Source: an uncultured Verrucomicrobiota bacterium
GTDB lineage: Bacteria > Verrucomicrobiota > Verrucomicrobiia > Opitutales > Seribacteraceae
Length of the DNA stretch: 64,000 nucleotides
Assembly (NCBI GenBank): GCA_902615835.1
Contig: CACMQL010000002.1
Location: 7,952-71,951, forward strand
Direction of reading: 5' to 3'
Part shown: positions 7,122 through 56,247 of the stretch, piece after piece
Position numbering within the stretch: the first letter of the stretch is position 1
Layout of the letters: each line of letters opens with the position of its first letter
The notes under the pieces: generated by a model
Databases searched by the model: none
What the model saw: only the letters and a program-made list of their open reading frames with translations
What the model was told of the DNA's origin: nothing
Made by a program: the position numbers and the translations under genes

Positions 7122-7994
7122 ATGATATTTAAATCACTCTTTCTTTCCTTCTTTGCATGTGCTCTCTCTTTTCTGCATGGAGAAAAACCACATGCGGTAT
7201 TTGTGGTGGGTACTCATCATTATTCCCCCCAGAAATCTATGCCGATGCTTGCATCCGAAATCGAGCGTCTCGGTTTGAAGATAACCGTAATTAACCCGGA
7301 CTGGGATCCTGAAAAAGACGAGAGGGGATTGCCGGGTTTGGAAGCATTGAAAAAAGCAGACCTAGCCATTTTCTATACCCGGTTTTTAAAAATTGATGAT
7401 CAACAACTCGTTCATATTACCGATTACCTTAAGTCAGGAAAGCCGGTGGTGGGTTTTCGGACGAGCACGCACGGGTTTAATTATCCGGATGAACATCCCA
7501 ATCAAAAGTGGAACGATGGGTTTGGCCGGGATGCTCTTGGTTCACCCTACCTCATTCATCTCAGTGGTCCCACTCGACTGAAAGTGGAGCAGGGGAGGAA
7601 CAAACACCCGGTTTTCACCGGTGTTCAAGCTGATGAAAATTGGGAATCCCGGGGTACGCTCTATCTGACCAAACCGGAAAAAGGAACCACCCCTCTTTTA
7701 TGGGGTACTGGGCACCCGAGGGACAAAAAAGCTGCAGTACGAACCAACCGATTTGGTACGCATCATCTTGAGCCGGAAATGACCGATGTGGTGGCATGGA
7801 CATGGACGAACAAATGGGGAGGCAGAACTTTTTCAACTTCCCTCGGCCATCTTAATGATTTTGGGGATCCCAATTCGGTAAGATTGATAATCAACGGGAT
7901 TTTTTGGGCGGCTGATCAGAAAGTTCCGAGTGCGGATACAAAGATCAATACTTTCGAAATTACATCTTCAAAGAAAAAGAAAAAATCAAAGTAA
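7122..7994 (+). CDS. ThuA-like (class I glutamine amidotransferase-like) secreted protein
   Basis: GLEALKKADL, GFRTSTHGF, VAWT..GGRTFSTSLGH. Confidence 0.75.
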   Translation: MIFKSLFLSFFACALSFLHGEKPHAVFVVGTHHYSPQKSMPMLASEIERLGLKITVINPDWDPEKDERGLPGLEALKKADLAIFYTRFLKIDDQQLVHITDYLKSGKPVVGFRTSTHGFNYPDEHPNQKWNDGFGRDALGSPYLIHLSGPTRLKVEQGRNKHPVFTGVQADENWESRGTLYLTKPEKGTTPLLWGTGHPRDKKAAVRTNRFGTHHLEPEMTDVVAWTWTNKWGGRTFSTSLGHLNDFGDPNSVRLIINGIFWAADQKVPSADTKINTFEITSSKKKKKSK

Positions 7995-42021: not shown

Positions 42022-43386
42022 TTACTTCTTGGGCTTATTTGTTTTTTTCTTCAAGACTTGGCTGGTCACTTCTTTTTCAGGCAACCATTTTTTAAAACGG
42101 CTCAGGTCGGAAATTGCGGCCAGATTTTTCCATTCATAGGGATCCTCGGCGTGATCGTAGTATTCCTCGGATCCGTCGGCATATCGAATATATCGTTCAG
42201 TTGCCGTACGCACCGAATGGTTTCCACGCCCATGAGTGGTGATGGCGGGGTGTTTCCATTTGGCTTTGGGGTTTTGCAGGAGAGTGGAGATGTCGTGGCC
42301 GCTGACATGGTCAGGTTTCTTAATCCCAGTCAGCGAGCATAGGGTGGGGTATATGCTCATGGTGTCGACGGGCTGTCTGCATTTCGTACCGGGCTTGGTA
42401 ACCCCCGGAGCCACCCATATCATCGGAATGCGGGTGGTTTCTTCCCAGAGGGCAAATTTCCGCCAGTGCTGTTTTTCGCCAAGTGACCATCCATGGTCAC
42501 TCCAGAATACGATGATGGTATTCTTGCGGTCAGGACTTTTCTCAAAGGCATCGAGGAGCCTGCCCACATTCATGTCGGTGTAGGCACAGGTGGCAAGGTA
42601 CGACTGGATTGCGGCTTTCCAACGCCCGCTTTTCAAAAACTTGGCATGGTCTGCCTGTGGATTGGCCATTTTAATTCCCGCCGGGGGGATGTCGTCGAGA
42701 TCATTCTCTAGGTGAGGCGGAAGCTTGATTTCATCGAGGGGGAAATCCTCGTAGTATTTGCGTGGAGCCACAAAGGCCAAGTGTGGTTTGTAAAGCCCAC
42801 AGGCGATGAAATAGGGTTTCTTACGCTTCTTGGAAAGTCGTTCCATGCAGTAATCTACCGAATGCCAGTCCACAATATCATCATCCTTTAAATCCGGAAA
42901 AGTTTTTTCTATATGGTACCCGTCGTACTTCTCGACTCCCGGACCATTGCTGGATAACTTACCTTTATTCATGTAATCACTCCACTCCTCTTCGAGAGCA
43001 TCCATTTGATGGTAGATCTTACCGGCTCCGGAAACATAGTATCCGGCTTGTAAAAACTGGGCGGAGAGGCCTTCGCCGGGCTTTTGGTATTTTCGCCATT
43101 CGTGTCCGTTCTTGTAGCACCCGCTTACCCATGGGCGTCGACCGCTCATCAGGGCACAACGCGAAGGTTCGCAGGCAGGCACGGCGGTGTGGGCGTTGGT
43201 GAAGGTGGTGCCCATGGCGGCCAATCGATCGATGTTCGGAGTCTTGGCCTGTGGGTTGCGACCCAGATGACTGACCCAGTGGTTCAGGTCATCAACTGCA
43301 ATGAAGAGGACATTCGGACGATCATCGGCTGAAAGTAAGAGAGTGGAGATTAGCCCTGTAATAAGGATTGGAAAGCGATGGGTCAT
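42022..43386 (-). CDS. Sulfatase (iduronate-2-sulfatase-like S1)
   Basis: PNVLFIAVDDLN, CEPSRCALMSG, GKIYH, KPH, SDHGW..GEK.HW.K. Confidence 0.9.
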   Translation of the reverse strand: MTHRFPILITGLISTLLLSADDRPNVLFIAVDDLNHWVSHLGRNPQAKTPNIDRLAAMGTTFTNAHTAVPACEPSRCALMSGRRPWVSGCYKNGHEWRKYQKPGEGLSAQFLQAGYYVSGAGKIYHQMDALEEEWSDYMNKGKLSSNGPGVEKYDGYHIEKTFPDLKDDDIVDWHSVDYCMERLSKKRKKPYFIACGLYKPHLAFVAPRKYYEDFPLDEIKLPPHLENDLDDIPPAGIKMANPQADHAKFLKSGRWKAAIQSYLATCAYTDMNVGRLLDAFEKSPDRKNTIIVFWSDHGWSLGEKQHWRKFALWEETTRIPMIWVAPGVTKPGTKCRQPVDTMSIYPTLCSLTGIKKPDHVSGHDISTLLQNPKAKWKHPAITTHGRGNHSVRTATERYIRYADGSEEYYDHAEDPYEWKNLAAISDLSRFKKWLPEKEVTSQVLKKKTNKPKK

Positions 43387-43455
43387 GATGAATTTTGTTA
43401 GGAATCATTCGATTGTTCTCTTGTCAGTTTTACTGAATCGAACCATCTTTGAAAG

Positions 43456-44298
43456 ATGTTTTTTAGATACTCATCCATTCTTTTTTTAACGACCCTTTTC
43501 CCCCTGAGTTCATTTGCCAGGGATCAGGTTAGCCCCGATGAAATTCTTGAGTACAAAAATACTCCACAGGGAAAACTTTTTCTCCATACCTATTATCCGG
43601 ATAATTGGAAAAAGACGGATAAGCGACCGGCGGTGGTCTTTTTCTTTGGGGGTGGATGGAATGGGGGATCATACACTCAGTTTTCCCGCCATGCGGATTA
43701 CCTGGCATCCCGTGGAATGGTTGCTTTTGCTGCGGATTATCGGATCAAAAGTAAACATAAGACTGAGCCAAAAGCCTGTGTGAGTGACGGCAAGTCGGCG
43801 GTTCGCTGGATACGTGGAAATTCGGCGAAATTAGGAGTGGATCCAAAAAAGATCATTGCCGGGGGAGGATCCGCCGGTGGCCATGTGGCTGCCACGACGG
43901 CCACGATCCAAGCCTTTGACGAGCCAAGTGATGACCTATCCATTAGTCCTAAACCCCAGGCCCTGTTGCTTTTTAATCCCGTGATCGACAACAGTGAAAA
44001 GGGATACGGATACTCCAGGGTGGAAGCGTACTGGAAAGAGTTTTCCCCGATGCATAATATTAAAAAGGGAATTCCCCCAACCATTTTTATTTGCGGGACG
44101 AAGGATAAACTGATCCCGGTTGACACCGGAGAGCTTTTTAAAAAGAAGATTGAAAAAGTCGGTGGGCGTTGCGATCTCCATTGGTACAAAGATGCAAAAC
44201 ATGGTTTCTTCAATGCGATGTTCAAGGAGACTATGCAAGAGGTGGATAAATTTTTGGTTTCCCTGGGGTATCTCGAGGGACCGTCCACTCTTCAGTGA
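43456..44298 (+). CDS. Secreted alpha/beta-hydrolase (carbohydrate esterase-like)
   Basis: FFGGGW, GGSAGG nucleophile elbow, GTKD, HGFFN. Confidence 0.88.
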   Translation: MFFRYSSILFLTTLFPLSSFARDQVSPDEILEYKNTPQGKLFLHTYYPDNWKKTDKRPAVVFFFGGGWNGGSYTQFSRHADYLASRGMVAFAADYRIKSKHKTEPKACVSDGKSAVRWIRGNSAKLGVDPKKIIAGGGSAGGHVAATTATIQAFDEPSDDLSISPKPQALLLFNPVIDNSEKGYGYSRVEAYWKEFSPMHNIKKGIPPTIFICGTKDKLIPVDTGELFKKKIEKVGGRCDLHWYKDAKHGFFNAMFKETMQEVDKFLVSLGYLEGPSTLQ

Positions 44299-44483
44299 TT
44301 TGATTCCTCAGGGTTCCCGAAGAATGAATCGTATATCTCGGGGGTCATCTCTAATATCGTCCGGATGGTTCGCCTTGGCGGTTGTGAGCGAAGCGAGATT
44401 AGCCCTATCCCAAACCTATGAAGAAAAATTATAAATTAACCACTGGGATTTTCAATGTTGGTTTTAGTATCCGATGGCAAGCC

Positions 44484-46205
44484 TTACTTGGGAAAAGGAT
44501 CGATCCGATTGAGAGCGGCCAAGGTGCTTCCCCGCAATATTCGAACGGTGGAGCTTCCCTCTTCATGCGGAAATAGCCATTGGAATAGATGTTCCGGAAT
44601 GGCTTCCGAGAATTTGAGAGCAGAGACTTCGTCCTGCCATCGAGTCTCTAAAAGCAGGGCAGCTGATCCGTCATCGAATTGCCACAAAGCCCATCGGTCG
44701 CCAGCCCATTGACCGGCAATTGTTCTCGCCACATAGCTTGAGTTCGGTTGGGCAAGCCAGGGAATAAGCCCGCCAATTCCCAAAACATCAGTCAGGTCGG
44801 GAGGTTCATCCATGAACTTCATGGCAAAATCAGCGGGAACGGGATCTCGTGCCCAGAGCGATCCGTTTTCATACCACAAGGGACGTAAGAATTCCATCAT
44901 GGTGGATGGTGGGCGTTGGTAAGCAGGCATTAAGCCCGAAAGAGGACCCGTAGGTCCGACAAGGAAATCAATGAAAAATGGACCCACAAAAGCAGGTAGT
45001 GAATACCATCGGTTTAACAGAGTGGTTTCGGGAAATTTAATCCCAGCCGGTCTGAATTGAGCAGGTGCGGGAATTTTAGGAGAAATACTTTTGGCGGTTG
45101 CGTATCTTCGAATGATTGTTTTCCGGATTCCGGATATCAAAGATTCTCCCGCTCTTCTTGCGTCTTCATTTTTTTCGAATCTCCTTTCTTCCCCTTTTGG
45201 GTTTCCCAAATTGTTTTGAAAGAGGATTGCCTCTGCAATTGCCCCAACCACACTGAGTCGGACAAAGGGATGATTGAAGGGAACTGTTTCCAGTATCAAG
45301 ACGCTCCTACCTAGAGGATCCGATTTGGCGACATGTTGTCCAAGTTCAAAACCTGTGAGTGCATCGAGCCAATCAATGTTTTCGGGGATGAGACCAAGGA
45401 TGGAAAATGCTTGTACCCTGGCTTCTCGAATGGAACTGGGATAGGTGGTTTCCAATTGATCAGTTACATTTTTGGTAAAAATTTCAGTACTTACTTTTTC
45501 AAACCTGATTGAGTAGATTGGTTTTTGATCCATTATTTCGGTTACTTCCCCCAATAGTTCGGTGGGTGTGACTGGGGGAAGGAGAGCGGCACTTTGGCTG
45601 TTGTTATGGCCATTTGGCGTGGCGTGACCAGGAGCCCTCTGGGGTGCTTCGCCGGTATGGGCAATTACTTCAGCATTTTCTATCGAGTAGACGAATCCTT
45701 GTTTCTTTCCTTCGTGAGTACTCTCTGGGCCCGTGATTCGAAAGGTCCCGGTTACCCGCGAAGGTTCCTCAATAAAGGAGTAGTTGGTTTCAGAATCATT
45801 ATTTCCCTGGGTAACAAAGACGACCTGTCGAAGGTTGGGTGGAGTACAAAAGGTGCAGCCGACATAGCTTGGCACCATCATACAACGGCTCATATCTTCC
45901 AGGCTGTCAAAAGGAGCCATGAAGGCAATAAGGCTAACTTTTTTTCCATCCAGTTTTTGTAATTCATCAGGAAAGGAAAGTGACATGTCGATTAGGTCTG
46001 TAGGCCTTGCTTCAGCGAGAAGGGGGAAGTCAATGACTGCAACGGAATCAGGGTAATTTTTAGCATCCAAGATCTCTGCATGTTTCTTGTTATTGGATTC
46101 AAAATTCTCATCTTCTGAAGGTGAAAAATCATCAAGTAAAACAAAGGCCCCCAGACCGGTGAGTAAAAAAGCGAGAAATAAAAACTTGATGGATTTCATT
46201 ATCAT
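44484..46205 (-). CDS. DUF3299 (ZrgD-like) domain fused to a degenerate zincin-like domain
   Basis: N-terminal anchor; LDGKKVSLIAFMAP..MMVPSYVGCTFCTPP..QVVFV (DUF3299-like); C-terminal PPSTMMEFLRP, DVLG, GQWAGDRW. Confidence 0.72.
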   Translation of the reverse strand: MIMKSIKFLFLAFLLTGLGAFVLLDDFSPSEDENFESNNKKHAEILDAKNYPDSVAVIDFPLLAEARPTDLIDMSLSFPDELQKLDGKKVSLIAFMAPFDSLEDMSRCMMVPSYVGCTFCTPPNLRQVVFVTQGNNDSETNYSFIEEPSRVTGTFRITGPESTHEGKKQGFVYSIENAEVIAHTGEAPQRAPGHATPNGHNNSQSAALLPPVTPTELLGEVTEIMDQKPIYSIRFEKVSTEIFTKNVTDQLETTYPSSIREARVQAFSILGLIPENIDWLDALTGFELGQHVAKSDPLGRSVLILETVPFNHPFVRLSVVGAIAEAILFQNNLGNPKGEERRFEKNEDARRAGESLISGIRKTIIRRYATAKSISPKIPAPAQFRPAGIKFPETTLLNRWYSLPAFVGPFFIDFLVGPTGPLSGLMPAYQRPPSTMMEFLRPLWYENGSLWARDPVPADFAMKFMDEPPDLTDVLGIGGLIPWLAQPNSSYVARTIAGQWAGDRWALWQFDDGSAALLLETRWQDEVSALKFSEAIPEHLFQWLFPHEEGSSTVRILRGSTLAALNRIDPFPK

Positions 46206-46221
46206 AAATGATGAAGGGTCT

Positions 46222-47466
46222 TTATTCTGAAAGTTGAAGGTCGTCAATGGGTGTTCTTCGATAAGAAGAAATTGCCGGGAAAGTGGAAGCCAATGCTCCA
46301 CTTAGAGCCATAATCAGAAGTGCGTAAAGTTCATTGCTTGGTATTCGCCAGGGATTGAGGATCAGTCCGGTAGCTTCACGAAAGTAATCAACCGCGATGG
46401 CCATGCCCCCATGCCCAATCAGCAGTCCGAGCAGGATTCCTCCTCCAGTGAGGAGTAAGCCCTCGGAAAAGACAAGGGTAGCCACTTCTCTTCTGTAAGC
46501 ACCCAAACTCCGAAGAATGGCAATGTCTCGACGCCGGCGCTCCGCTGCCTGTTGAAGAGTAATCAATACCGTCAGGCAGGATACGGCTACCACAACTCCA
46601 GCTATGGCCAGGAGTATTTTTTGGACCGGACCCAAAATTCCCTGTTGGAAACGCATGATTTCATTGATTGGGATTGCGGCGATACCATCGGTTCCTTCCC
46701 GTATTTCATCGGCCATCCAAAGGCGAAGCCCAGGAGTCTCAAGTCGTACGAGGATGGCGGTCGTCTCCCTCGTTTTATGATCTGCCATAATCGCGGATCC
46801 CTGAATGGCAGAATGGAGGAGATCTTCCGTTTCATGAATTTCCCAGACTGATTTTAAGGTTCCGAATATGGCTCGGTCTTGGGCGGTGCCGGACGGAGCA
46901 AGGATTCCACTGACCCGGTAAGGGAAGTCGCGATGTACTTCGGCTCCGGCAACCTCGATTAATCCATGGGTGCCAAAGAAGGAATCACCGATTTTCAGTC
47001 CGCTTGCTTGGGCTACCTGGCTTCCTAGGACTACATCAAACCGGTCTTGAAATACATCACCTTCTGCCAGTTCAAAGAATAAATTTCCTTCCCGGTCAGG
47101 CAAATCAAAGAAATGCTTTTCCGTGCCAATAATTCGATAGCCCAAATAATTATCACCGAGCCCGACGGGAGCAGCCCATTCAACCCTCGGGTCACTGCGG
47201 ATTCGTTCATATTCCTTGTAGGGTATATTACCCGTGGGCGAGTCCAGGTGGTAGACGCTGGAGAGCACAAGCTGGAGCGGACTTCCTTTTCCTCCGGCTA
47301 CGAGGTCATAAAGTCCGGCATCTCTCGACAGTGCTTTTTCTGATTCATGTCGTAGGGCGAGTACTGCACAGACCAATGCCACCCCGGTGGAGATTCCAGA
47401 GATCGTTAGCAAGCTGACGAGCCAGCGAAATTTTAGGTATTGCCAAGCCATGAAAAAGAAATTCAT
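46222..47466 (-). CDS. ABC transporter permease, MacB/FtsX type (ZrgC-like)
   Basis: GGKGSPLQLVLSSVYH, LGDNY.GYRIIGT, HG..H, ERRRRDIAILRSLGA. Confidence 0.88.
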   Translation of the reverse strand: MNFFFMAWQYLKFRWLVSLLTISGISTGVALVCAVLALRHESEKALSRDAGLYDLVAGGKGSPLQLVLSSVYHLDSPTGNIPYKEYERIRSDPRVEWAAPVGLGDNYLGYRIIGTEKHFFDLPDREGNLFFELAEGDVFQDRFDVVLGSQVAQASGLKIGDSFFGTHGLIEVAGAEVHRDFPYRVSGILAPSGTAQDRAIFGTLKSVWEIHETEDLLHSAIQGSAIMADHKTRETTAILVRLETPGLRLWMADEIREGTDGIAAIPINEIMRFQQGILGPVQKILLAIAGVVVAVSCLTVLITLQQAAERRRRDIAILRSLGAYRREVATLVFSEGLLLTGGGILLGLLIGHGGMAIAVDYFREATGLILNPWRIPSNELYALLIMALSGALASTFPAISSYRRTPIDDLQLSE

Positions 47467-48164
47467 GACCCTGTAACCTCCTCATCCGCTGTCAGTTCCC
47501 TGGGTTTAATAAGTTCAGAACAATCGAAGTTATTTGGCATCTCCCTTGCGATGGATGGATCATGGGTTACCAAGAGCAGGGTGCGATTATCCTCTTCAGC
47601 TATTCTTTTGAGAAGATGGAAAATCTCGAGTCCTGTCCTCGGGTCAAGAGCACCTGTGGGTTCATCTGCCAGTAAAATGGGTGCATTGCCGACAAGGGCA
47701 CGAGCAATGGCGATGCGTTGCCGCTGTCCAACTGAAAGCTCGTCAGGGCGTGCATGAAGACGATCACCCAATCCCACCCGTTCAAGCACATCGATTGCTC
47801 GTTTTTTTGGATATTTTTGATTACGATCACTGAAGCGTAATCCAATCAAAACATTTTCCAAAGCGGTGAATGGAGAAAGTAGATGGAAGGTTTGAAAAAT
47901 CATACCACAGTGAGTGCCGCGGTGTCGGTCAAGCTGAGCCGGAGATAGTTTCATGAGATTTACCCCATCGACAATAATTTCTCCTTTGTCCGCTATCCGC
48001 AGTCCAGAAACCAGATTGAGCAGGGTGCTTTTTCCACATCCACTTGGCCCGGTTAGGGCAACTATCTCACCTGCCGTTACTTCAAATGCAGGAAGTTGAA
48101 ACTGGACCGATAGCGAGTGATCCGTTTTCCCAAGGTTAAGAGATACCTTGTTAAGTCGGATCAT
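47463..48164 (-). CDS. ABC transporter ATP-binding protein, LolD/MacB type (ZrgB-like)
   Basis: GPSGCGKST, LSVGQRQR, LADEPTGALD, VTHD. Confidence 0.93.
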   Translation of the reverse strand: MIRLNKVSLNLGKTDHSLSVQFQLPAFEVTAGEIVALTGPSGCGKSTLLNLVSGLRIADKGEIIVDGVNLMKLSPAQLDRHRGTHCGMIFQTFHLLSPFTALENVLIGLRFSDRNQKYPKKRAIDVLERVGLGDRLHARPDELSVGQRQRIAIARALVGNAPILLADEPTGALDPRTGLEIFHLLKRIAEEDNRTLLLVTHDPSIAREMPNNFDCSELIKPRELTADEEVTGS

Positions 48165-48172
48165 TATCGTAT

Positions 48173-49003
48173 TTATTCGCCTTCTTCGCGATGAATATGT
48201 GGGCGAAGGACAAACAAACCCGTGGTTGTATTTTCAAAAATAAGTTCTCCTTTTGCGGCAAAGTCCGCTCCCATTAACCAGGTTGCATCGGTTTCTGTTG
48301 CACCTGGAAAAACGAAGTAATTTGTATTTCCTTCCACAATGGTCGAGGCTCCCGACTCATCCTCATTTCGTTCATGATCACGCACTGCAAGGATTACACG
48401 CTTATCGAGTGCAGGGAAATTGAGTGTTAGCACGGTCTTGGATGGCACGAGCCAGGGATCTCCCTCATAACCACCCCTTTTTAGCCAGACTTCCAGGTCT
48501 CCAGCGTCATCATGCAGTTTAATTTCCACGGTTCCGGTTTGTTTCCCGTTATCATCGAATATGGGATATAAAAAGCCACCGTTAGTTCCTTCGTTCGCGT
48601 GAATATGGGGCATGCCTGCAGCTTCAATTAATTTTGCGATCACCGGATGAAGTCCAAGCACTAAGTTTCCCAAAGTCAATTCATCCAAGTCATCATCTTT
48701 GAGGCTGGTTACCAGGTTTTCAAGATCGCCTAGCAGAAGTTCGATCTCCTGGGGATTAGCGGCGTTGGATGGAATCGATTCAGTAGTTACCGCCAAACCG
48801 GCAGCTAGCAATTCGGCGTGTAATTCACGAACTGCACTTAGATCCTTAACTCTGACCAATCCATCAGCCTGAAACGCAAGATTGTCGAACTGGGTAATTT
48901 CGGGCCAGCTAACGGTTTCATTTTCATTTTGAATATCACTGCGCTCGCAGGAAATAATGGTGAGGACGAAACTCAAAGCTAAAAAGAGGGTTGTTTTAGT
49001 CAT
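48173..49003 (-). CDS. His-containing lipoprotein, putative metal-binding component
   Basis: Lipobox IIS-C19; acidic; GLHP, PHIH (twice), KLHDDAGDLE; first gene of the ABC operon. Confidence 0.7.
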   Translation of the reverse strand: MTKTTLFLALSFVLTIISCERSDIQNENETVSWPEITQFDNLAFQADGLVRVKDLSAVRELHAELLAAGLAVTTESIPSNAANPQEIELLLGDLENLVTSLKDDDLDELTLGNLVLGLHPVIAKLIEAAGMPHIHANEGTNGGFLYPIFDDNGKQTGTVEIKLHDDAGDLEVWLKRGGYEGDPWLVPSKTVLTLNFPALDKRVILAVRDHERNEDESGASTIVEGNTNYFVFPGATETDATWLMGADFAAKGELIFENTTTGLFVLRPHIHREEGE

Positions 49004-49018
49004 GTTTGAATAAATTAA

Positions 49019-49042
49019 TTAATGCAAATAACTTGCAATAAG
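49019..49042. promoter_or_regulatory. Palindromic operator, copy 1 (putative Zur/Fur-family box) in the divergent promoter region
   Basis: TTAATGCAAATAACTTGCAATAAG; 22/24 identical to copy 2. Confidence 0.75.
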
Positions 49043-49070
49043 AATTTACACCCTTAATGATGACCGTCAA
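49043..49070 (-). promoter_or_regulatory. Sigma70-like promoter for the ABC operon
   Basis: Minus strand TTGACG-16 nt-TAAATT, directly abutting operator copy 1. Confidence 0.5.
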
Positions 49071-49090
49071 TTGATTAAGATCAACCAGAT

Positions 49091-50296
49091 ATGTATTTCG
49101 CTTCCGACAATGACTTCGTAGAGAGAATAGACACAAACGTGTTGATCGTAGGAGCCGGGCCGGCAGGGATTGGAACAGCTTCCGCATTAAAAGAAGCGGG
49201 TGTGGAGGAGATGTTGGTCGTTGATTCCCGTCAAATCGGTGCCTCTTTTATAAACTGGCCCAAGCAAATGTCTTTGCTCACTCCATCTTTTCACTCCAAC
49301 TCATTTGGTTTCACCGACCTTAATGCGATTGACCCTGAGACATCCCCCGCTGATTTCCTTCGGACTCAGCACCCCACTGGTGAACAATATGCAAAATATT
49401 TACAGGCGGTTGCCAGCTACCATGAACTGGATGTTCGTTGCGGTGTGGAGGTAAGTGCCGTCTGCAAAAAAGATGAAAAATTTATTGTTACCACAAACCA
49501 GTCTGACATCTTTGCTGATATTGTAATCTGGGCGGCAGGTCAGTTTTTTTACCCGAAAGATTCGGTTTTTCCAGGTGCAAACCTAGCCTTACATTCTTCA
49601 AAAGTTGATGACTGGAGCGATCTCCAGGGTGATGAATTTGTGATTATTGGTGGTTATGAGAGCGGGGTGGATGCGGCGTTGAATCTTGTAAACTTGGGGA
49701 AATCTGTCTGCCTGTACACTCGTGGTGAACCCTGGACCTCTGATCACCCGGATCCGTCCCGTTCCCTGAGTCCACGCACCCTTGACCGTCTGAGAGGAAT
49801 TCTGCAGTCTCCCGAGAAAATGAAGAACCTCAATCTCTTTAAAAATGCCGACATCCGAAAGCTGGAAGAAAGTCATGGCTGGTGGACTCTTTATGATCAG
49901 GATGATATACCTTCGGTTTCCCGTACCCGACCGATCCTTGCCAATGGATTTCATTCCGGACTTGGTCTGGTAGCCAGTCTTTTTAAGCATGATGAGAATA
50001 ATCTTCCTGTTTTCAGTGAGGCAGCGGATGAGTCAACCATTACCAAAGGACTTTTTTATTCGGGACCTGCACTCGTTCACCGTAACTCTTTGTTTTGTTT
50101 TATATACAAGTATCGTGCTCGTTTTGGCGTGATTGCCCGCGAGATTGCACTACGACTTGACAAAGAGAATGTGGACGAAAAACTTAAGTCGTACGAAAAG
50201 GCAGGTTTTATGAATACGGATCTTGATTGTTGCACGGAGTGTGAATGTGCCATTAAGCCTGAAGAAGCCGCCCCTGAGCCGGCCGCTTTCTCTTGA
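49091..50296 (+). CDS. FAD/NAD(P)-dependent oxidoreductase (CzcO/FMO-like) with Cys-rich tail
   Basis: IVGAGPAG, WAAG, IGGYESG, ANGF; C-terminal DCCTECEC. Confidence 0.85.
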   Translation: MYFASDNDFVERIDTNVLIVGAGPAGIGTASALKEAGVEEMLVVDSRQIGASFINWPKQMSLLTPSFHSNSFGFTDLNAIDPETSPADFLRTQHPTGEQYAKYLQAVASYHELDVRCGVEVSAVCKKDEKFIVTTNQSDIFADIVIWAAGQFFYPKDSVFPGANLALHSSKVDDWSDLQGDEFVIIGGYESGVDAALNLVNLGKSVCLYTRGEPWTSDHPDPSRSLSPRTLDRLRGILQSPEKMKNLNLFKNADIRKLEESHGWWTLYDQDDIPSVSRTRPILANGFHSGLGLVASLFKHDENNLPVFSEAADESTITKGLFYSGPALVHRNSLFCFIYKYRARFGVIAREIALRLDKENVDEKLKSYEKAGFMNTDLDCCTECECAIKPEEAAPEPAAFS

Positions 50297-51281
50297 TGGT
50301 AAATGCGGTGAATGCCAAGCAACTACTGTTGCCTGCTGGGATAATCACGGGACTCCTCGCGGGAACTTTCTTTCCCATTGTTACTGAATCAATAAGTAAT
50401 CTGGTAAATCCACTTGTTCTGACCTTGTTAGCGTTGCTTTTTTTTGAGATTCGTTTCGATCCGATTTCTAAAATCGCCCGAAATCGCCTTTTCATTTGTC
50501 TGGTATGGTTGAGTAACTTCCTCATAATTCCCTTGTTTGCCTGGGGTTTGTCAGTTTTTTTTTTGCAACGGAACCGGAACTGTATGCAGGTTTGCTGCTT
50601 TATCTTCTCTTCCCCTGCACGGACTGGTTCCTTGCCTTCACCCGGATGGCGAAGGGGGATGTTTCCCTCGGTTCGGTGCTGATCCCCCTTAATTTAGTTA
50701 CCCAACTTTTGTTTTTCCCCCTTTATTTGTCTTTTTTCATCGGCTTGCAGACAGATTTCAACCTATCCGGAGTTTGGGGCACTTTAGGACGGTGGTTTGT
50801 GTTGCCATTGCTGGGTGCCACATTTCTTCGTTTTGTTTTTGCTAAAGTACTTTCACAGGATCGTTTCGCTACCTTGCATAAATTTACTGGTTCCTTGATT
50901 CCATGGGTTCTTGCGGGTTTGGTTTTTTGTATCTTTTCTTGTCATACCCAGCAATTGACCTCTCATCCAAAAGTCTTTCCTCTTGTCCTTCTGGCTGTCT
51001 TTATCTTCTTTGTTTTGACTTGGATACTAGGAGAACTGTTTGCTTGGTGTTTCAAGCTAAAACGCCCTCAGCATGTCTTACTTGCAATGTCCACAACCGC
51101 CCGTAATTCTCCCTTGATGCTAGGTTTGGCTACCGTTGTTCTTCCCGAGCAACCCCTTGTCTATGCCGCACTCATCATTGGTATGCTCGTTGAGTTTCCC
51201 CACCTCGCCTTTCTTACCCATGTATTTCAACGACGAACAAATTTGATCTCAAACTCAGCCCAAAATTCAGCGGTGGTTTAG
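50296..51281 (+). pseudogene. Acr3/BART-superfamily transporter split by a frameshift in a T10 tract
   Basis: ORFs 50293-50682 and 50592-51281 join if T10 (50555-50564) is T11 or T8: NFLIIP...FATEPELYAGLLLYLLFPCTDWFLAFT...ARNSPL...EFP. Confidence 0.8.
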
Positions 51282-51353
51282 GTGTATTTTCCTGTTGTCT
51301 GTTACAGATACGGATCACTCTCATCCGATGTTGTATCATGTTTTTTTCCCAAT

Positions 51354-51380
51354 CCTTATTGCAATTAACTTGCAATAAGG
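51354..51380. promoter_or_regulatory. Palindromic operator, copy 2 (perfect 11-5-11 inverted repeat)
   Basis: CCTTATTGCAA-TTAAC-TTGCAATAAGG, 61 bp upstream of the DsrE-like gene. Confidence 0.8.
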
Positions 51381-51441
51381 AAGAATTCGACTTACTCCGC
51401 AATATTCCAACTATCAACTTCATCCAAATTAATATTAACAC

Positions 51442-51819
51442 ATGAAAATCGCTTATGTATTCAAAACTAGCATGGCTAGTACTTATCAACTCAGTTCCAT
51501 GATATTACCCCAGTTGGAGAATGATTCACACATAGTGGATGTCGTGGGAATGTTCTTTTTTGATGATAATATATTTTGCCTAAAGCAAAATGATTCCGTT
51601 GGGGAAAGATTATCCAAAATTGCCCGGGATCGAGGAATGTTACTGATGGTTTGTGATCAATGTGCGGTCAGAAGGGGATTAGCAGAAGGCACGTTTGAAC
51701 AGTGTGGCAGCGGTGATGTGAAAGCCAAAGGTCTGGTTGAGGGCGTGGTGGCAGGCTGTTTTCCTCAGTTGTACACAGCCCTTGGATCTAATCCACCTGA
51801 TCAGGTAATTACGCTATAA
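51442..51819 (+). CDS. DsrE-related (SaoD-like) protein
   Basis: MKIAYVF, MILPQLE..H..VVGMFFFDDN, MVCDQCA.RRG, GCFP.LY. Confidence 0.78.
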   Translation: MKIAYVFKTSMASTYQLSSMILPQLENDSHIVDVVGMFFFDDNIFCLKQNDSVGERLSKIARDRGMLLMVCDQCAVRRGLAEGTFEQCGSGDVKAKGLVEGVVAGCFPQLYTALGSNPPDQVITL

Positions 51820-51999
51820 ACTTAATGTAATTTTAAGTAAAAGTTTAGACCAAGACAATTTTCAAACAAATTTATATCAAAGGCTTTTCGATTAAGCCAA
51901 TACAATGAATGTTTTCGGGAATCCTTTTTAAAAAAAGCGTCTTTTTTATTGAAGCCAGGATAAAGACCAACGATTATCTTAGCCCTAAAAGTTAATCTT

Positions 52000-52509
52000 A
52001 TGTCAAAACCCGCCCCAATCGAAATTCCCTTTGCTGCTCGCACTTCAGTTGAACAAGTGGAGGAAAGTAACCAATTAGCGCCGAAGTTTGACGAGAATGG
52101 ATGTATACCATGCATTACCACCCATGCTGAAACTGGTGAAGTTTTAATGTTTGCATTCATGAACTCGGAAGCACTTCGACTTTCCATCTCTACCGGACTC
52201 GCTCATTATTGGTCGCGTTCCCGGCAAAAGCTGTGGAAAAAAGGGGAGACATCCGGTATGTATCAACATATTGAACGAATTCTAATCGATGATGACCAGG
52301 ACTGTGTTATTATGGAAGTAAAATTAACTCCGCCCGCAACTGGAGGTAATGAAGCCTCATGCCATGTTGGATATCGTTCCTGTTTCTATCGTTCGATTCC
52401 AGTGAAACCTGAAACGGCGGAGGACCTAAAGCTTGAATTTGTGGAAAACAATAAGTCTTTCGACCCTGATCAGGTATATCCGGGAGTTCCCAATCCCACA
52501 CGCCTTTGA
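52000..52509 (+). CDS. hisI: Phosphoribosyl-AMP cyclohydrolase (variant metal motif)
   Basis: VLMFAFMN, YWSRSRQKLWKKGETSG, DDDQDC, SCHVGYRSCF. Confidence 0.92.
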   Translation: MSKPAPIEIPFAARTSVEQVEESNQLAPKFDENGCIPCITTHAETGEVLMFAFMNSEALRLSISTGLAHYWSRSRQKLWKKGETSGMYQHIERILIDDDQDCVIMEVKLTPPATGGNEASCHVGYRSCFYRSIPVKPETAEDLKLEFVENNKSFDPDQVYPGVPNPTRL

Positions 52510-52523
52510 AAGAGTTCTAATTT

Positions 52524-52967
52524 ATGATGACTCCTGAAGAGCACATCAGAACCGTCCGCCCACTTTTTGAAATGGGCTCGGAGCTTCCCCAGAATCCTGA
52601 GGTAGAACAAGATATTCAGGATCGGAAGGGAGAGGCTAAAAGAGTCACAAAGCGTCTTGCTTCCATATTTGAAGAGCATAAGGACGCTGCCCTGCCATTA
52701 AAAATAAATCTCGGTGGCGAAGATCTCCAATTAGTTATCAGTGCTTTACGAGATCATGCCAGGGGCGGAGTGGGTTCGCCTGTTCCCGGTTCAAGGGATG
52801 AGATACATGGTTATTGTCTTAATCGTCTGTTCGATGAGCTTGTGGAAGAGCCAAGTAATATTCTCTTCACCACCAAAACCGGTCCAGATACGATGCGTTA
52901 TGATGCGATGAATACAGCTTTCTGGATCGAATGCCTTGATTTAATGGAAGATACATTTTGTTCGTAA
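52524..52967 (+). CDS. Hypothetical protein in the hisI-COG0523 operon
   Basis: 147-aa ORF tightly packed between neighbours (14 and 4 bp gaps). Confidence 0.75.
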
Positions 52968-52971
52968 TTGC

Positions 52972-54183
52972 ATGATACAGGCTTTATCGAAACTTCCTGT
53001 TACCGTCCTTTCGGGATTTCTAGGATCAGGCAAGACCACTTTACTGAACCATATTTTGAATAATCGGGATGGAAGGAAAGTGGCGGTTATTGTCAATGAT
53101 ATGTCAGAGGTCAATATTGACGCCAACTTGGTTCGCAATGGAGACGCTTCCCTTTCTCAAACAGAGGAGCAACTGGTAGAAATGTCCAATGGCTGCATTT
53201 GCTGCACTCTACGCGAGGATCTGCTGATTGAGGTAGGTAAGCTTGCAAGACAGAATCGTTTTGATCATCTCGTAATTGAATCTACGGGAGTGTCCGAACC
53301 CATGCCTGTGTCCGAGACTTTTACCTTTGAGGACGAGAACGGATCTTCCTTGGGAGAAGTTGCCGCCATAGACACGATGGTCACTGTGGTGGATGCCCCC
53401 AATTTTCTCGAGGATTTTTCCATAACAGAACAATTGGTGGACCGTGAGCAGGCTGTTGATGAGCAAGATGAGCGAACCATTGTTGATTTGTTGTCAGATC
53501 AGATAGACTTCGCAGATGTTATTCTGGTGAATAAGACTGATCTCATTACATCCGATCAACTGCACCAAGTGCATGGAATGATCCGGGCCCTCAACTCAAA
53601 GGCACTAATTCACGATACAGTTAATGCAGAAGTTCCGATTGAAGAGGTCCTGGGCTCGCGAAAGTTTGACCCTTTGCGAGCGTCCCAACACGATGGATGG
53701 CTTGAATCTTTGGTTGAACACACCCCGGAGACCGAGGAATATGGGATTGGTAATTTCGTCTATGAGCGAAGGATTCCCTTTCATCCTCAACGATTTTTTG
53801 ACTGCCTTCAGCTTGAATGGCCGGGAGTCATTCGATCAAAGGGAATATTCTGGCTTGCCACCCGACTCAAGATGTCAGGAGTCTGGTCACGGGCAGGTTC
53901 GATTTCAAGGCATGAAAGTGGTGGTTATTTCTGGGCGGCACTTCCTCGTAGTTACTGGCCCGAAGACCGCAGTCACATCGAACGGGTATGGAAGCCCGGT
54001 AATGGAGATTGCCGCCAGGAGATCGTCTTGATCGGATGCGATATGGATCAGGAGGCTCTTAGTTCCATGCTTGATGAATGCCTCCTTACAGAGAAGGAGC
54101 TATCAACTGATGAGACCACTTGGCCTCTGCGTTTTAACGACCCTTTTCCCTTGTGGGATGCCGGAGTTGAAGTGGAAAACTGA
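52972..54183 (+). CDS. COG0523 / CobW-family G3E GTPase (ZigA/YciC-like zinc metallochaperone)
   Basis: [45 protein letters not shown], CobW_C domain. Confidence 0.94.
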
Positions 54184-54295
54184 AGGAATCAACCACGCTC
54201 TCGAAAAAGTTTTTGGTCGATTCACTTACTTCTTGCTTAACAATAATCGAAGATTTTTTAGCATGACTAATCAATTCCCTTCAAACTCTTAACTT

Positions 54296-55147
54296 ATGAA
54301 ATTAATCACTCGTTTATTCCTCCTTATCACCCTGTCCTTCCTGACATTTTCCTCCTTGTCTAATGCTAAAATTAAAAGAGTCGTTTTTCTTGCAGACAAA
54401 GGAAAAAATACTGATGTTCACGCTCATGAAAGCGGAAACGCCATCTTGGCCAATGCGCTTGAAGAGAGTGGTCTTGGTTTTGACACCGCCCAATACAAAG
54501 GCTGGCCTGAAGATCCAAAAGCTTTTGATGGGGCCGATTCCGTGGTAATTTTTTGTAATGGTGGCAAGGGACACCTGGTTATGAAGCACCTCGACCAGTT
54601 TGAGAAATTGATCGATTCCGGAGTCGGTTTTGTTTTTATGCACTATGCGGTGGAAGTGCCGATCGGCAGGGCAGGTGTCCTCATGCGTAAAGCCATGGGT
54701 GGATATTTTGAGACCCACTGGTCAGTCAACCCTCACTGGACGGCTGAATTTAAATCCCTCCCCAAACATCCGATTACCCGTGGAGTTAAACCTTTCACCC
54801 AGAAGGATGAGTGGTATTTTCATATGCGTTTTCAGCCTGAAATGATGGGCGTTACACCCATTCTTTCAGCTCATCCACCCAAAGAGACCATGAACCGAAA
54901 GGATGGTCCCCATTCCAATAATCCTCATGTTCGTAAATCCATGGCAGCAGGAGAAATCCAGCATATTGGCTGGGCCTATGAACGCCCAAACGGTAAAGGA
55001 CGTGGTTTTGGCACAACCGGTGGTCATTACCACAACACCTGGGCAAGAGACAATTGGCGTACAACAATACTCAACGCGATCGCTTGGACTGCCGGGGTGG
55101 AAGTGCCCGAAAATGGCGTTCCTTCCATTGCCCAGTTGATTAAGTAA
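54296..55147 (+). CDS. ThuA-like secreted protein
   Basis: H.HESG, HYAVE, HPITRGV, DEWYF, GRGFGTTGGH.H. Confidence 0.8.
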   Translation: MKLITRLFLLITLSFLTFSSLSNAKIKRVVFLADKGKNTDVHAHESGNAILANALEESGLGFDTAQYKGWPEDPKAFDGADSVVIFCNGGKGHLVMKHLDQFEKLIDSGVGFVFMHYAVEVPIGRAGVLMRKAMGGYFETHWSVNPHWTAEFKSLPKHPITRGVKPFTQKDEWYFHMRFQPEMMGVTPILSAHPPKETMNRKDGPHSNNPHVRKSMAAGEIQHIGWAYERPNGKGRGFGTTGGHYHNTWARDNWRTTILNAIAWTAGVEVPENGVPSIAQLIK

Positions 55148-55223
55148 GATCGTTCTTCATGATTACCCGCCAGCCTATCATTTAGGTCGGTTCTAAAACC
55201 CAAAATTAAAGCCAAGGAAAATA

Positions 55224-56135
55224 ATGTTCAAAACTACATTTATACTTTTTACTGCAGTCGCAGCTTACTTTTCTATGTTTTCATCCCTTTCCTATGCGGA
55301 TGATCCCAAAGGTTCTTCGAAGATAAAGCTGCTTTTGATTGACGGACAGAACAACCACGACTGGAAGAGATGTTCTCCGGTTATGATCGATACTCTTAAC
55401 GCTACGGGTCGATTTAGTATCGAGCGGGCAACGGTTGCCAAGGAGGATATTGCAAACTTCAAACCGGATTTCAGCAAGTATGAGGTCATATTATCCAATT
55501 ACAACGGAGAGCCATGGTTGCAGGAGACTCAGGATTCCTTCGTAAAGTATATGAAGAAGGGGGGTAATTTGGTTGTGGTACATGCGGCTGACAATTCATT
55601 TCCCAAGTGGAAAGAGTTCAATGAAATGATCGGACTAGGTGGGTGGAAAGGGCGAAATGAAAAGGATGGTCCATATGTCTATTGGAAAGACGGTAAGATT
55701 GTTCGTGACGAATCCAAGGGCAGGGGAGGTTCTCATGGTCGCCCGTGGGAATACAAGGTTGTTGTGCGTGAAAAGAACCACCCGATTACCCGTGGATTGC
55801 CTACAGAGTTTTTAATGGTGAAGGAGGAGCTATATGATCGCCTTCGTGGACCGGCCAAGAATATGACCGTCCTTGCAACTGCATTTGCTGAAGGCGGTTC
55901 TGAAAGGCATGAGCCCGTTCTTATGACGATCTCTTACGGCAAGGGCCGTGTATTTCATACGGTTATGGGTCACAGTCATACATCCATGGGTGGGGTGGCT
56001 TTTCAGGAGACGCTAATTCGTGGAACGGAATGGGCTGCAACCGGAGAGGTTACCTTTCCTCCCGTTAACAACAAGGTACTACCCGTGAATCGTGCCGCCT
56101 ATCGTAAAGTAGAAGACATCAAGACCCTCAACTGA
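55224..56135 (+). CDS. ThuA-like secreted protein
   Basis: DGQNNHDW, VHAAD, HPITRGLP, ELY, GKGRVFHTVMGH. Confidence 0.82.
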   Translation: MFKTTFILFTAVAAYFSMFSSLSYADDPKGSSKIKLLLIDGQNNHDWKRCSPVMIDTLNATGRFSIERATVAKEDIANFKPDFSKYEVILSNYNGEPWLQETQDSFVKYMKKGGNLVVVHAADNSFPKWKEFNEMIGLGGWKGRNEKDGPYVYWKDGKIVRDESKGRGGSHGRPWEYKVVVREKNHPITRGLPTEFLMVKEELYDRLRGPAKNMTVLATAFAEGGSERHEPVLMTISYGKGRVFHTVMGHSHTSMGGVAFQETLIRGTEWAATGEVTFPPVNNKVLPVNRAAYRKVEDIKTLN

Positions 56136-56247
56136 GCCAATTTCACGGACTATGGATTGATCCAGAAAAGTGTCCTGTTTTAACCCCTCTATCGAGTCTC
56201 AGCCGAATGGCTAAGTAAAGCTAAGGAAAGGAGCGCTTTGCCCTCAA

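Follow-up and report, generated by a model that had tools for sequence, protein, structure and literature searches.

The surface ocean is poor in zinc, and the strategies by which its dominant uncultured bacteria cope with this are little understood. Whether ten neighbouring genes of an uncultured marine Verrucomicrobia bacterium, grouped about a repeated palindrome, form a response to zinc scarcity is the question raised by the stretch of DNA analysed here. This stretch, referred to throughout as the window, is the whole of the 64,000 nucleotides from positions 7952 to 71951 of contig C2 in a 1.8-Mb assembly (G000), which consists of 91 contigs and is 61% complete. A contig of the single amplified genome (SAG) 'uncultured Verrucomicrobia bacterium AG-891-C06' has 97% identity to the window over 14 kb. 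The ten genes occupy positions 44484-54183 and are arranged around two copies of a 23-bp palindrome, referred to as operators 1 and 2 (Table 1). On one side of operator 1 is an operon for an ATP-binding cassette (ABC) transporter, which starts with a lipoprotein gene, and on the other are genes for a flavoprotein and a permease. Beyond operator 2 are genes for a DsrE-like protein, a HisI, a protein of 147 amino acids (aa) and a GTPase of the COG0523 family. The gene set was defined from six-frame open reading frames (ORFs) and Pfam and NCBIfam family scans, in which every gene of the ten-gene divergent cluster described by a first-pass annotation of the sequence was found.

It is quite probable, judging from gene and promoter sequences, that this accessory island makes up the greater part of what has been recovered of a low-zinc regulon in a marine Verrucomicrobia species. 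The first-pass annotation had proposed a low-zinc regulon in a Verrucomicrobia-like organism, and comparative genomics supports this through four features: a variant of the Zur box, a ZigA-like GTPase, a second HisI and a gene order like that of the zrg operon. Low-zinc regulons are already known as a type. The candidates for novelty are a variant Zur box that is common to several phyla and several members of the regulon that are uncharacterised.

The operator in the window and in the genus

The palindrome, TTATTGCAA-N5-TTGCAATAA, is present with no mismatches as operator 2 and with one mismatch as operator 1, where approximately 0.1 matches are expected by chance per window. The two operators are the sole sites with two or fewer mismatches in the whole assembly. 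A third palindrome, with three mismatches, is present on contig C78 between genes that read as methyltransferase-like and membrane-protein genes, and has been taken as a chance occurrence.

Genomes of the genus are designated by G-numbers, G000 being the window's own assembly and G001, G003, G006, G021, G043, G045 and G055 being relatives. In G003, G021, G045 and G055 the palindrome is found at the same positions, despite an identity of only about 66% between G000 and G003 in coding DNA of the island's left half, which runs from the ABC operon to the permease gene. In alignments of the intergenic regions the palindrome is the longest conserved block. When the region between the lipoprotein and flavoprotein genes is aligned with G003 and G021, no block is better conserved than operator 1, and operator 2 is conserved in G003 and G055. 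Directly beside operator 1 is the promoter-like site of the ABC operon, whose -35 region, CGTCAAT, does not vary among the three aligned genomes. As a 23-bp odd-centred palindrome that occupies two promoter regions and is conserved in relatives, the element has the format of a Fur-family operator.

The first-pass annotation placed this palindrome at the start of every transcription unit. Its two copies serve three promoters, one for the ABC operon, one for the flavoprotein and permease genes and one for the dsrE-like gene, but there is none for the run of hisI, the 147-aa gene and the GTPase gene. In G045, which carries a variant of the island without dsrE and hisI, a copy of the palindrome is found about 60 bp upstream of the 147-aa gene.

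A strict 21-bp pattern of the box has matches in 19 of the 44 genus genomes, while the reversed control has 0. The additional sites in the genus are at a divergent locus that has genes for a small Cys/His protein and a TonB-dependent receptor on one side, and for a BD-FAE esterase (present only as a remnant in G055) and a PhoD-like phosphatase on the other. The small Cys/His protein has a weak match to DUF2946. The nearest relative of the window's genome, G055, has this TonB/PhoD-like locus (G055:C34:14226, L167; the others are L151-L166), and it is absent from the incomplete G000 assembly.

A Zur-type box in several phyla

The core of the operator, TGCAAT-N3-ATTGCA, is an odd-centred palindrome of the 7-1-7 type. 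Direct comparison with TGTTAT-N3-ATAACA, which is the core at the SAR11 znuA/znuC promoter and which we take to be the core of the Escherichia coli Zur box as well, shows that the two differ only at positions 3-4 and at the mirror positions.

The exact core TGCAA-N5-TTGCA occurs 17 times in the 1.3 Mb of loci that were fetched with the DsrE-like protein. In 11 of these loci it is within 160 bp upstream of the dsrE-like gene. These 11 are from two Verrucomicrobia, Rhodospirillaceae and other Alphaproteobacteria, a Pelagibacterales metagenome-assembled genome (MAG), a 'Rickettsiales' MAG and two Marinimicrobia. In the other phyla 28-90 bp separate the upstream core from the dsrE-like gene, and the Marinimicrobia sites have arms that are identical to those of the window. 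Two further sites, one in a Gemmatimonadota and one in an Ignavibacterium MAG, are ahead of a COG0523 gene that is the first of a cluster in which the dsrE-like gene is also found.

Additional copies were sought in the genomes from which five of the box-bearing loci come, and the flanking genes were family-scanned. In a Rhodospirillaceae SAG (L143) the box is in the divergent promoter of a Fur-family gene, which is followed by genes for a small membrane protein, a ZrgA (PF10986, 101 bits) and an ABC ATPase. A Marinimicrobia genome has the box between divergent Fur-family and COG0523 genes and also ahead of a MerC-like gene, and a third genome has it ahead of a DUF1826 gene. A box ahead of the Fur-family gene itself and of zinc uptake genes was seen in these other genomes only.

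The usual content of Zur regulons includes autoregulated Fur-family genes, zinc ABC systems, COG0523 genes, DUF1826 genes and TonB receptors (PMC2770081). The likeness of the island to the regulons of Haas et al. (2009, PMC2770081) extends to the odd-centred, AT-rich promoter palindrome and to a gene set in which a zinc uptake system is joined by a HisI paralogue and a COG0523 GTPase, with DUF1826 and TonB receptors being part of the same regulon in related genomes. The core sequence is different, theirs being GTTAT-N3-ATAAC where TGCAA-N5-TTGCA is found here. Members that are additional to their list are the DsrE-like protein, the flavoprotein with its Cys tail, the SBF-type permease, the His-lipoprotein and the COG0523 partner found in Verrucomicrobiota. 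These comparisons support the reading of TGCAA-N5-TTGCA as a variant of the classical Zur box. A literature search found no paper that joins 'Zur box' with Verrucomicrobia.

MerC-like proteins are encoded in two of the box-bearing loci, second in the divergent unit in the Rhodospirillaceae (L143:1124-1597) and directly behind the box in the Marinimicrobia (L145:486-875). They may be thiol-lined metal importers of low-zinc regulons.

The ABC operon

In Vibrio parahaemolyticus the operon zrgD(DUF2607)-zrgA(DUF2796)-zrgC(ATPase)-zrgB(permease)-zrgE(DUF3299) shows a 75-205-fold rise in low zinc (PMC9817125). The order here is lipoprotein-ATPase-permease-DUF3299, which repeats the Vibrio succession from the binding protein onwards, likewise under a Zur-type box. 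The comparison with ZrgBCD that was made in the first pass holds for the order of the genes but not for the naming of the last, since DUF3299 corresponds to ZrgE and not to ZrgD (PMC9817125). There are further differences. The first gene is not ZrgA/DUF2796, no island protein matched DUF2607 (ZrgD) in Pfam scans, and the DUF3299 protein has an extra zincin-like domain without HExxH.

The lipoprotein matched no Pfam or NCBIfam family, ZrgA/DUF2796 included, at E up to 10, in scans with the tool that gave the true ZrgA of L143 its 101 bits. It has 188 homologues, all of them unnamed and from marine metagenomes. Residues H119, H133, H135, H164, H269 and H271 are invariant, within the motifs GLHP, PHIH, KLHDD and RPHIH, as are acidic residues. 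The AlphaFold2 (AF2) model, with a predicted local distance difference test (pLDDT) score of 81.7, consists of a four-helix bundle and a beta domain, for which whole-model fold searches returned generic four-helix bundles only (Z up to 9.9) and no specific PDB match. PDB sequence searches gave nothing useful for the lipoprotein, the DUF3299 fusion or the DsrE-like protein. The lipoprotein can thus still be called unfamiliar, having no family, no PDB relative and no specific fold match. Its position in the operon and its pattern of His residues suggest that it is an extracytoplasmic zinc-binding component.

The DUF3299 protein probably has its true start at the Met of MIMKS near 46205. It is exported and has a C-terminal zincin-like domain of about 360 aa, for which phmmer found 75 representative relatives, about a dozen of them with the same fused length. 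Of 36 relatives that were aligned and scanned, 10 match DUF3299 and 4 distant ones match DUF6782, a putative metallopeptidase family. The distant DUF6782 relatives carry HExxHALQDQ (as HELTHALQDQ), at which place the window protein reads GAIAE, and both His of HExxH are missing in all of the DUF3299-fused relatives examined. The recognition of this protein as a 'pseudo-zincin fusion' was therefore correct.

The GTPase, HisI and the 147-aa protein

The GTPase carries the CxCC motif in the form GCICC, along with cobW and CobW_C domains, which places it in the zinc subgroup of COG0523 as had been claimed. It scores 587.6 bits against the ZigA equivalog NF038288, with residues 8-393 aligned to positions 1-390 of the model. 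This is just under the cut-off of 600, so it is named ZigA-like. The likeness to ZigA of Acinetobacter baumannii is in the full-length match, the CxCC motif and the two domains. The neighbouring genes differ, being the second hisI (hisI2) and the gene for a lineage-specific small protein in the island and, presumably, hut genes in A. baumannii.

The HisI of the island is a true second copy. In G003 and G043 an island hisI and a housekeeping hisI are both present, 31-37% identical to each other, and G006, which is 96% complete and without the island marker genes searched, has the housekeeping hisI only. The single hisI match in G000 is the island copy, and the housekeeping gene there is probably unassembled. 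When the island HisI is aligned to 1ZPS, the motif DCDGD reads DDDQD, with Cys replaced by Asp, while the Cys of ACH and SCF are kept. The Cys of DCDGD in 1ZPS is one that we take to be among three zinc ligands, and if it is a ligand then the HisI proteins with IDDDQD would be a subfamily with an altered metal site. The IDDDQD sequence also occurs in two Proteobacteria, Thiohalocapsa and an alphaproteobacterium, where the hisI gene has dsrE-like and COG0523 genes nearby and its product shares 53-56% identity with the island HisI. HisI paralogues are a known class of Zur-regulon members, and in those described by Haas et al. the zinc ligands are kept (PMC2770081), whereas in the island HisI the first Cys is Asp.

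The 147-aa protein had been regarded as an orphan. It instead belongs to a family of 272 proteins, all of them 'hypothetical', for which every taxon that is named by the source is Verrucomicrobiota. The family is present in 6 of 400 sampled Verrucomicrobiota genomes, and in 5 of these 6 loci a COG0523 gene is adjoining or within about 2 kb. In G043, where the GTPase gene (zigA) is deleted, the gene for this protein is a pseudogene with stop codons. From this gene context the protein is read as a lineage-specific partner or client of the GTPase. Its AF2 model has a pLDDT of 82.8, fold searches gave no match (best Z 6.0; Foldseek E of at least 0.3) and the ESM Atlas gave no usable match. The protein was also considered as the missing regulator, and the MarR/SmtB-like rows among the fold results, with a match probability of no more than 0.15, were too weak for this. 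A fusion with COG0523 that appears in G167 is probably a frameshift artefact, since the C-terminal part of the 147-aa protein is there in another frame.

The repressor and the metal

Several observations weigh against the island being a zinc regulon. There are three Fur-family genes in G000 and none is in the window. The paralogue encoded on contig C41 is the closest of them to the Zur proteins of zinc loci, but only weakly, at 36-46 bits. No znuA was found in the 61%-complete assembly. The box differs from all Zur boxes known to us from the literature, which leaves room for a Fur-family paralogue that senses another metal. The 180-bp gap between dsrE and hisI has no palindrome or conserved block in three genomes, so the genes from hisI to zigA would either be read through from the dsrE promoter or be outside the control of the operator; a scan of the gap found no terminator-like site on the plus strand, and read-through is plausible. 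Island marker genes are present in 7 of the 44 genus genomes, often with deletions, and the seawater RNA-library contigs that match the island indicate presence in the libraries only, and not regulation.

None of the three Fur-family proteins reaches the NCBIfam cut-off for Zur, Fur or PerR. The first is encoded upstream of sufCB and has a PerR/Irr-like appearance. The second is 123 aa and its gene is after a peptide deformylase gene. The third, on contig C41, is 138 aa and has the stretch GHGHGHHHH. This His-rich paralogue would be the best candidate for the repressor. The sequence TGCAA-N4-TTGCA is present about 85 bp upstream of the C41 gene (L005:1373-1386), one base short of the spacing of the operators.

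It is possible to see in the palindrome the operator of a Fur-family paralogue that senses cobalt, nickel, copper, iron or manganese, and in the island a scarcity regulon for that metal. COG0523 proteins, among whose families is CobW, and ABC/TonB systems also serve cobalt, nickel and iron. The departure of the box from described Zur boxes and the presence of three Fur-family genes of unassigned specificity are in keeping with such a sensor, as is the weak DUF2946 match at the TonB-receptor locus, DUF2946 being a family that presumably belongs to copper contexts. This is nevertheless improbable. The GTPase scores 158.9 bits on CobW compared with its 587.6 on ZigA, and the box is ahead of ZrgA (PF10986) and DUF1826 genes in other genomes. 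In SAR11 the dsrE-like gene has GTTAT-N3-ATAAC boxes that are identical to those of the znuA/znuC promoter beside a Fur-family gene, and HisI paralogues are documented members of Zur regulons (PMC2770081).

The DsrE-like protein

The DsrE-like protein, which has four conserved Cys (Cys4), is the island member of widest interest. It exceeds the cut-off of the NCBIfam model NF040913, 'SaoD/DsrE family' (Table 1), and scores 120.6 bits on the SaoD model and 24.3 bits on Pfam DsrE. A database search returned 4882 relatives. Locus statistics were taken from the best 80 of 490 stretches, in a scan with one genome per species. The proteins of these 80 are 70-100% identical to that of the island, and the identity is still 70-87% for relatives in other phyla. 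The taxa represented are Pelagibacteraceae, SAR116, Rhodospirillaceae, Rhodobacteraceae, Marinimicrobia, Acidimicrobiaceae, Gemmatimonadota, Chloroflexi, Acidobacteria, Thermodesulfobacteriota, Spirochaetales, Ignavibacterium and Thiohalocapsa. Of the 123 positions of the protein 50 are invariant, including C71, C74, C88, C106 and H30, and these four Cys and the His would be compatible with a metal or redox site.

Genes for COG0523, ZnuA, ZnuB or a Fur-family protein are within 6 kb in 28 of the 80 loci, and a Zur-type box is within 160 bp upstream of the dsrE-like gene in 53, counts that overstate independence because the loci are mutually related. The upstream box is GTTAT-N3-ATAAC in 42 of the 80 (background 0.009 per 160 bp) and TGCAA-N5-TTGCA in 11 (background 0.002 per 160 bp). 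Boxes are found as well at SAR11 loci where the dsrE-like gene neighbours ribose-transport or aldehyde-dehydrogenase genes, and at several of the loci that are free of boxes the gene is inside a zur, znu or COG0523 cluster. The association between dsrE-like genes and boxes spans several phyla and two types of box.

No paper linking DsrE-family proteins with Zur or zinc limitation was found in a literature search, and a search on SaoD returned unrelated acronyms only. The first-pass annotation could not place the protein in a known pathway. This still holds, there being no useful PDB match. Its contexts in other genomes are conserved and linked to zinc. The protein resembles the DsrE/TusD sulfur-relay proteins and SaoD in its matches to Pfam DsrE and to the SaoD/DsrE model. 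It differs from them in that no sulfur-relay or sao partners were seen, in its setting among zinc genes in many phyla, and in having four invariant Cys and one invariant His.

There is an even chance that the DsrE-like Cys4 protein is a core low-zinc effector, joined by the flavoprotein in several lineages, and that TGCAA-N5-TTGCA represents a second cross-phylum specificity class of Zur. It may then carry out a step of zinc handling that is based on thiols and has no counterpart in the Zur regulons described so far, for example the capture of zinc, its hand-over to COG0523 clients, or the redox release of zinc from thiolate sites. In a Thiohalocapsa MAG (L081:8473-9912) a 479-aa ORF with Fur-family and MerB (alkylmercury lyase) domains is present between the COG0523 and dsrE-like genes. 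The recurrence of the DsrE-like protein with the Cys-tailed flavoprotein, with MerC-like proteins and with this Fur-MerB protein suggests, as speculation, that a thiophilic metal is handled by way of thiols.

The flavoprotein and the permease

The flavoprotein ends in the tail DLDCCTECEC, within which CCxxCxC is conserved. Its nearest solved relative, at 208 bits over the full length, is PDB 3D1C of Staphylococcus aureus, a 'putative monooxygenase' that ends in the same Cys tail, written CC-x3-C-x-C. There is no assigned function in the PDB title of 3D1C, so it offers a fold and no mechanism. Orthologues of the flavoprotein at 38-43% identity, in zinc loci of Gemmatimonadota and Spirochaetales, keep the Cys tail. 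In a Spirochaetales MAG the flavoprotein gene is after znuA and divergent from zur-znuC-znuB-X-dsrE, where X has about 410 codons and no match beyond a weak porin-like one. Two Gemmatimonadota MAGs have the flavoprotein gene just downstream of a COG0523 gene, in a cluster that also has a dsrE-like gene. The flavoprotein scores 82.9 bits on the YpdA/Bdr equivalog (cut-off 339.9) and 52.9 on ArsO (cut-off 425). It falls below both, and in agreement with its initial description it could not be placed in a known pathway. Its contexts in other genomes are linked to zinc.

The ATG of the permease gene at 50296 overlaps the TGA stop of the flavoprotein gene by one base, and it is proposed that the two may be translationally coupled. 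In G000 a T-run near 50557 is short of one nucleotide, which breaks the permease frame. The 97%-identical SAG contig, G003 and a seawater RNA-library contig all have the extra base and an unbroken frame, the base being a C after 50556 in the RNA-library contig, and its presence in three other sources indicates an assembly error or a strain-level lesion in G000. An intact orthologue (L012:8851-9837) matches SBF with 57.3 bits. The permease had been called an Acr3-like exporter. It belongs to the SBF superfamily but is not an ACR3 equivalog, the score on the ACR3 equivalog (TIGR00832) being 46.5 bits with a cut-off of 282.8. The permease was not found in the other zinc loci examined.

The weak similarities to ArsO, ACR3 and YpdA might be taken to mean that the flavoprotein, the permease and the DsrE-like protein form a module for the detoxification of arsenic, thiols or sulfur that merely neighbours zinc genes, and the DsrE-like protein has the DsrE fold with a conserved Cys at what we take to be the active-site position of DsrE/TusD. 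This is very unlikely, as the scores are far under the cut-offs and no arsR, arsC, dsr, sox or tus partner appeared in the Pfam and NCBIfam scans of the island proteins. The flavoprotein and dsrE units also have their operator in common with the Zrg-like operon, and both proteins recur in the znu, zur and COG0523 loci of unrelated phyla.

A model for the low-zinc regulon

For a zinc regulon we infer a repressor, a response to zinc and a biochemical role for each component, which would work together as follows. A Zur-type Fur-family repressor, encoded outside the island and loaded with zinc, would bind both TGCAA-N5-TTGCA operators and block the adjoining promoters. When zinc is scarce the repressor would be released and the three units transcribed. 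The His-lipoprotein would then capture zinc outside the cytoplasm in the place of ZrgA, and the MacB-type permease and the ATPase would move it. The DUF3299 protein with its dead zincin domain would be an accessory to them, either in binding or as a scaffold. The Cys-tailed flavoprotein and the permease of the SBF/Acr3 superfamily would provide a transport step linked to thiols or redox. The dsrE-like unit, probably read through to hisI2, the 147-aa gene and the zigA-like gene, would serve in the sparing and re-allocation of zinc. The parts for this would be a HisI with an altered metal site, a metallochaperone with its lineage-specific partner, and, for the handling of metal or thiols, a Cys4 protein.

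The island supplies a regulon and an operator for marine Verrucomicrobia that can be tested, and the box permits the prediction of low-zinc regulons in Rhodospirillaceae, Marinimicrobia and other uncultured groups. It also points to a small and highly conserved Cys4 protein that is kept behind Zur boxes in SAR11 too. If zinc handling is indeed the role of the DsrE-like protein, the Cys-tailed flavoprotein and the His-lipoprotein, these would be new parts to set beside uptake systems, COG0523 chaperones and zinc-free paralogues, and their genes would be useful as markers of zinc stress in metatranscriptomes.

Layout, distribution and expression of the island

Table 1. Genes and promoter elements of the island, with positions in the window
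Feature	Position	Strand or location	Evidence
DUF3299 fusion	44484-46301	minus	PF11736 26.6 bits (cut-off 22)
MacB/FtsX-type ABC permease, ZrgB position	46222-47466	minus	MacB_PCD 55.1 bits, FtsX 51.8 bits
ABC ATPase, LolD/MacB type, ZrgC position	47463-48164	minus	ABC_tran 114.7 bits; top NCBIfam matches LolD, DevA
His-lipoprotein, ABC operon gene 1, ZrgA position	48173-49003	minus	lipobox IISC
Operator 1, TTAATGCAA-ATAAC-TTGCAATAA	49019-49041	divergent promoter region of lipoprotein and flavoprotein genes	
Promoter-like site TTGACG-16-TAAATT, ABC operon	49043-49070	minus	consensus match only
Pyr_redox_3 FAD/NAD(P) flavoprotein, Cys tail	49091-50296	plus	PF13738 300 bits, full length
SBF/Acr3-superfamily permease	50293-51281	plus	frame broken in G000 assembly
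Operator 2, perfect palindrome	51356-51378	64 bp upstream of dsrE-like start codon	
DsrE-like protein	51442-51819	plus	NF040913 198.4 bits (cut-off 152)
HisI, second copy, IDDDQD type	52000-52509	plus	PF01502 96.6 bits
147-aa COG0523-associated protein ('orphan')	52524-52967	plus	Verrucomicrobiota-only family
COG0523 ZigA-like GTPase	52972-54183	plus	cobW 193.8 bits, CobW_C 69.9 bits

With the DsrE-like protein as the query, the island was found in 3 of 25 genus genomes. There are several variants. In G021 a deletion of about 1.6 kb (L011, G021:C94, 1634-1861) fuses the flavoprotein gene (to 49989) with the 3' part of the dsrE-like gene (from 51601), taking out the permease gene and operator 2. 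In G001 the flavoprotein gene is truncated and runs into thuA, while G045 is without dsrE and hisI and G043 is without zigA. The patchy distribution and the several deletion variants indicate that the island is accessory and readily decays. Co-conservation of the genes in relatives, which had been suggested as a check on the cluster, is seen in part. Synteny of the whole island is not kept outside the genus, but sub-modules are kept beside zinc genes, these being the Zrg-like operon with the flavoprotein gene, dsrE with COG0523 or znu genes, hisI2 with COG0523, and the 147-aa gene with COG0523.

That the palindromes are transcribed hairpins (5' untranslated regions or attenuators) or mobile-element remnants, in a cluster that is not co-regulated, is very unlikely: operator 2 can be folded as a 12-bp RNA hairpin (-15.4 kcal/mol, z -3.45) and the island is accessory and patchy, but such folding is expected of any perfect palindrome, operator 1 has a z of only about -1 on either strand, the sites are in divergent promoter regions, including ahead of Fur-family genes, with arms that are conserved and a spacer that is variable, an Rfam scan of 43000-57000 gave no match, and neither a transposase nor a repeat family was seen.

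Four RNA libraries from seawater, which come from different studies, have contigs that match pieces of the island at 92-99% identity. The pieces are parts of the ABC operon and of the flavoprotein, permease, hisI, 147-aa, zigA and thuA genes, and the contigs span the junctions between hisI and the 147-aa gene and between the 147-aa gene and zigA.

Wherever a relative has the island's right half, zigA is followed by two tandem ThuA-like genes (54296-56135 in the window), and no operator was seen ahead of them. At the DNA level the identity to G003 is about 66% in the left half (46511-51214) and about 88% in the right half, from hisI to thuA (52015-56135). The two halves of the island may have different histories, through recombination or separate acquisition.

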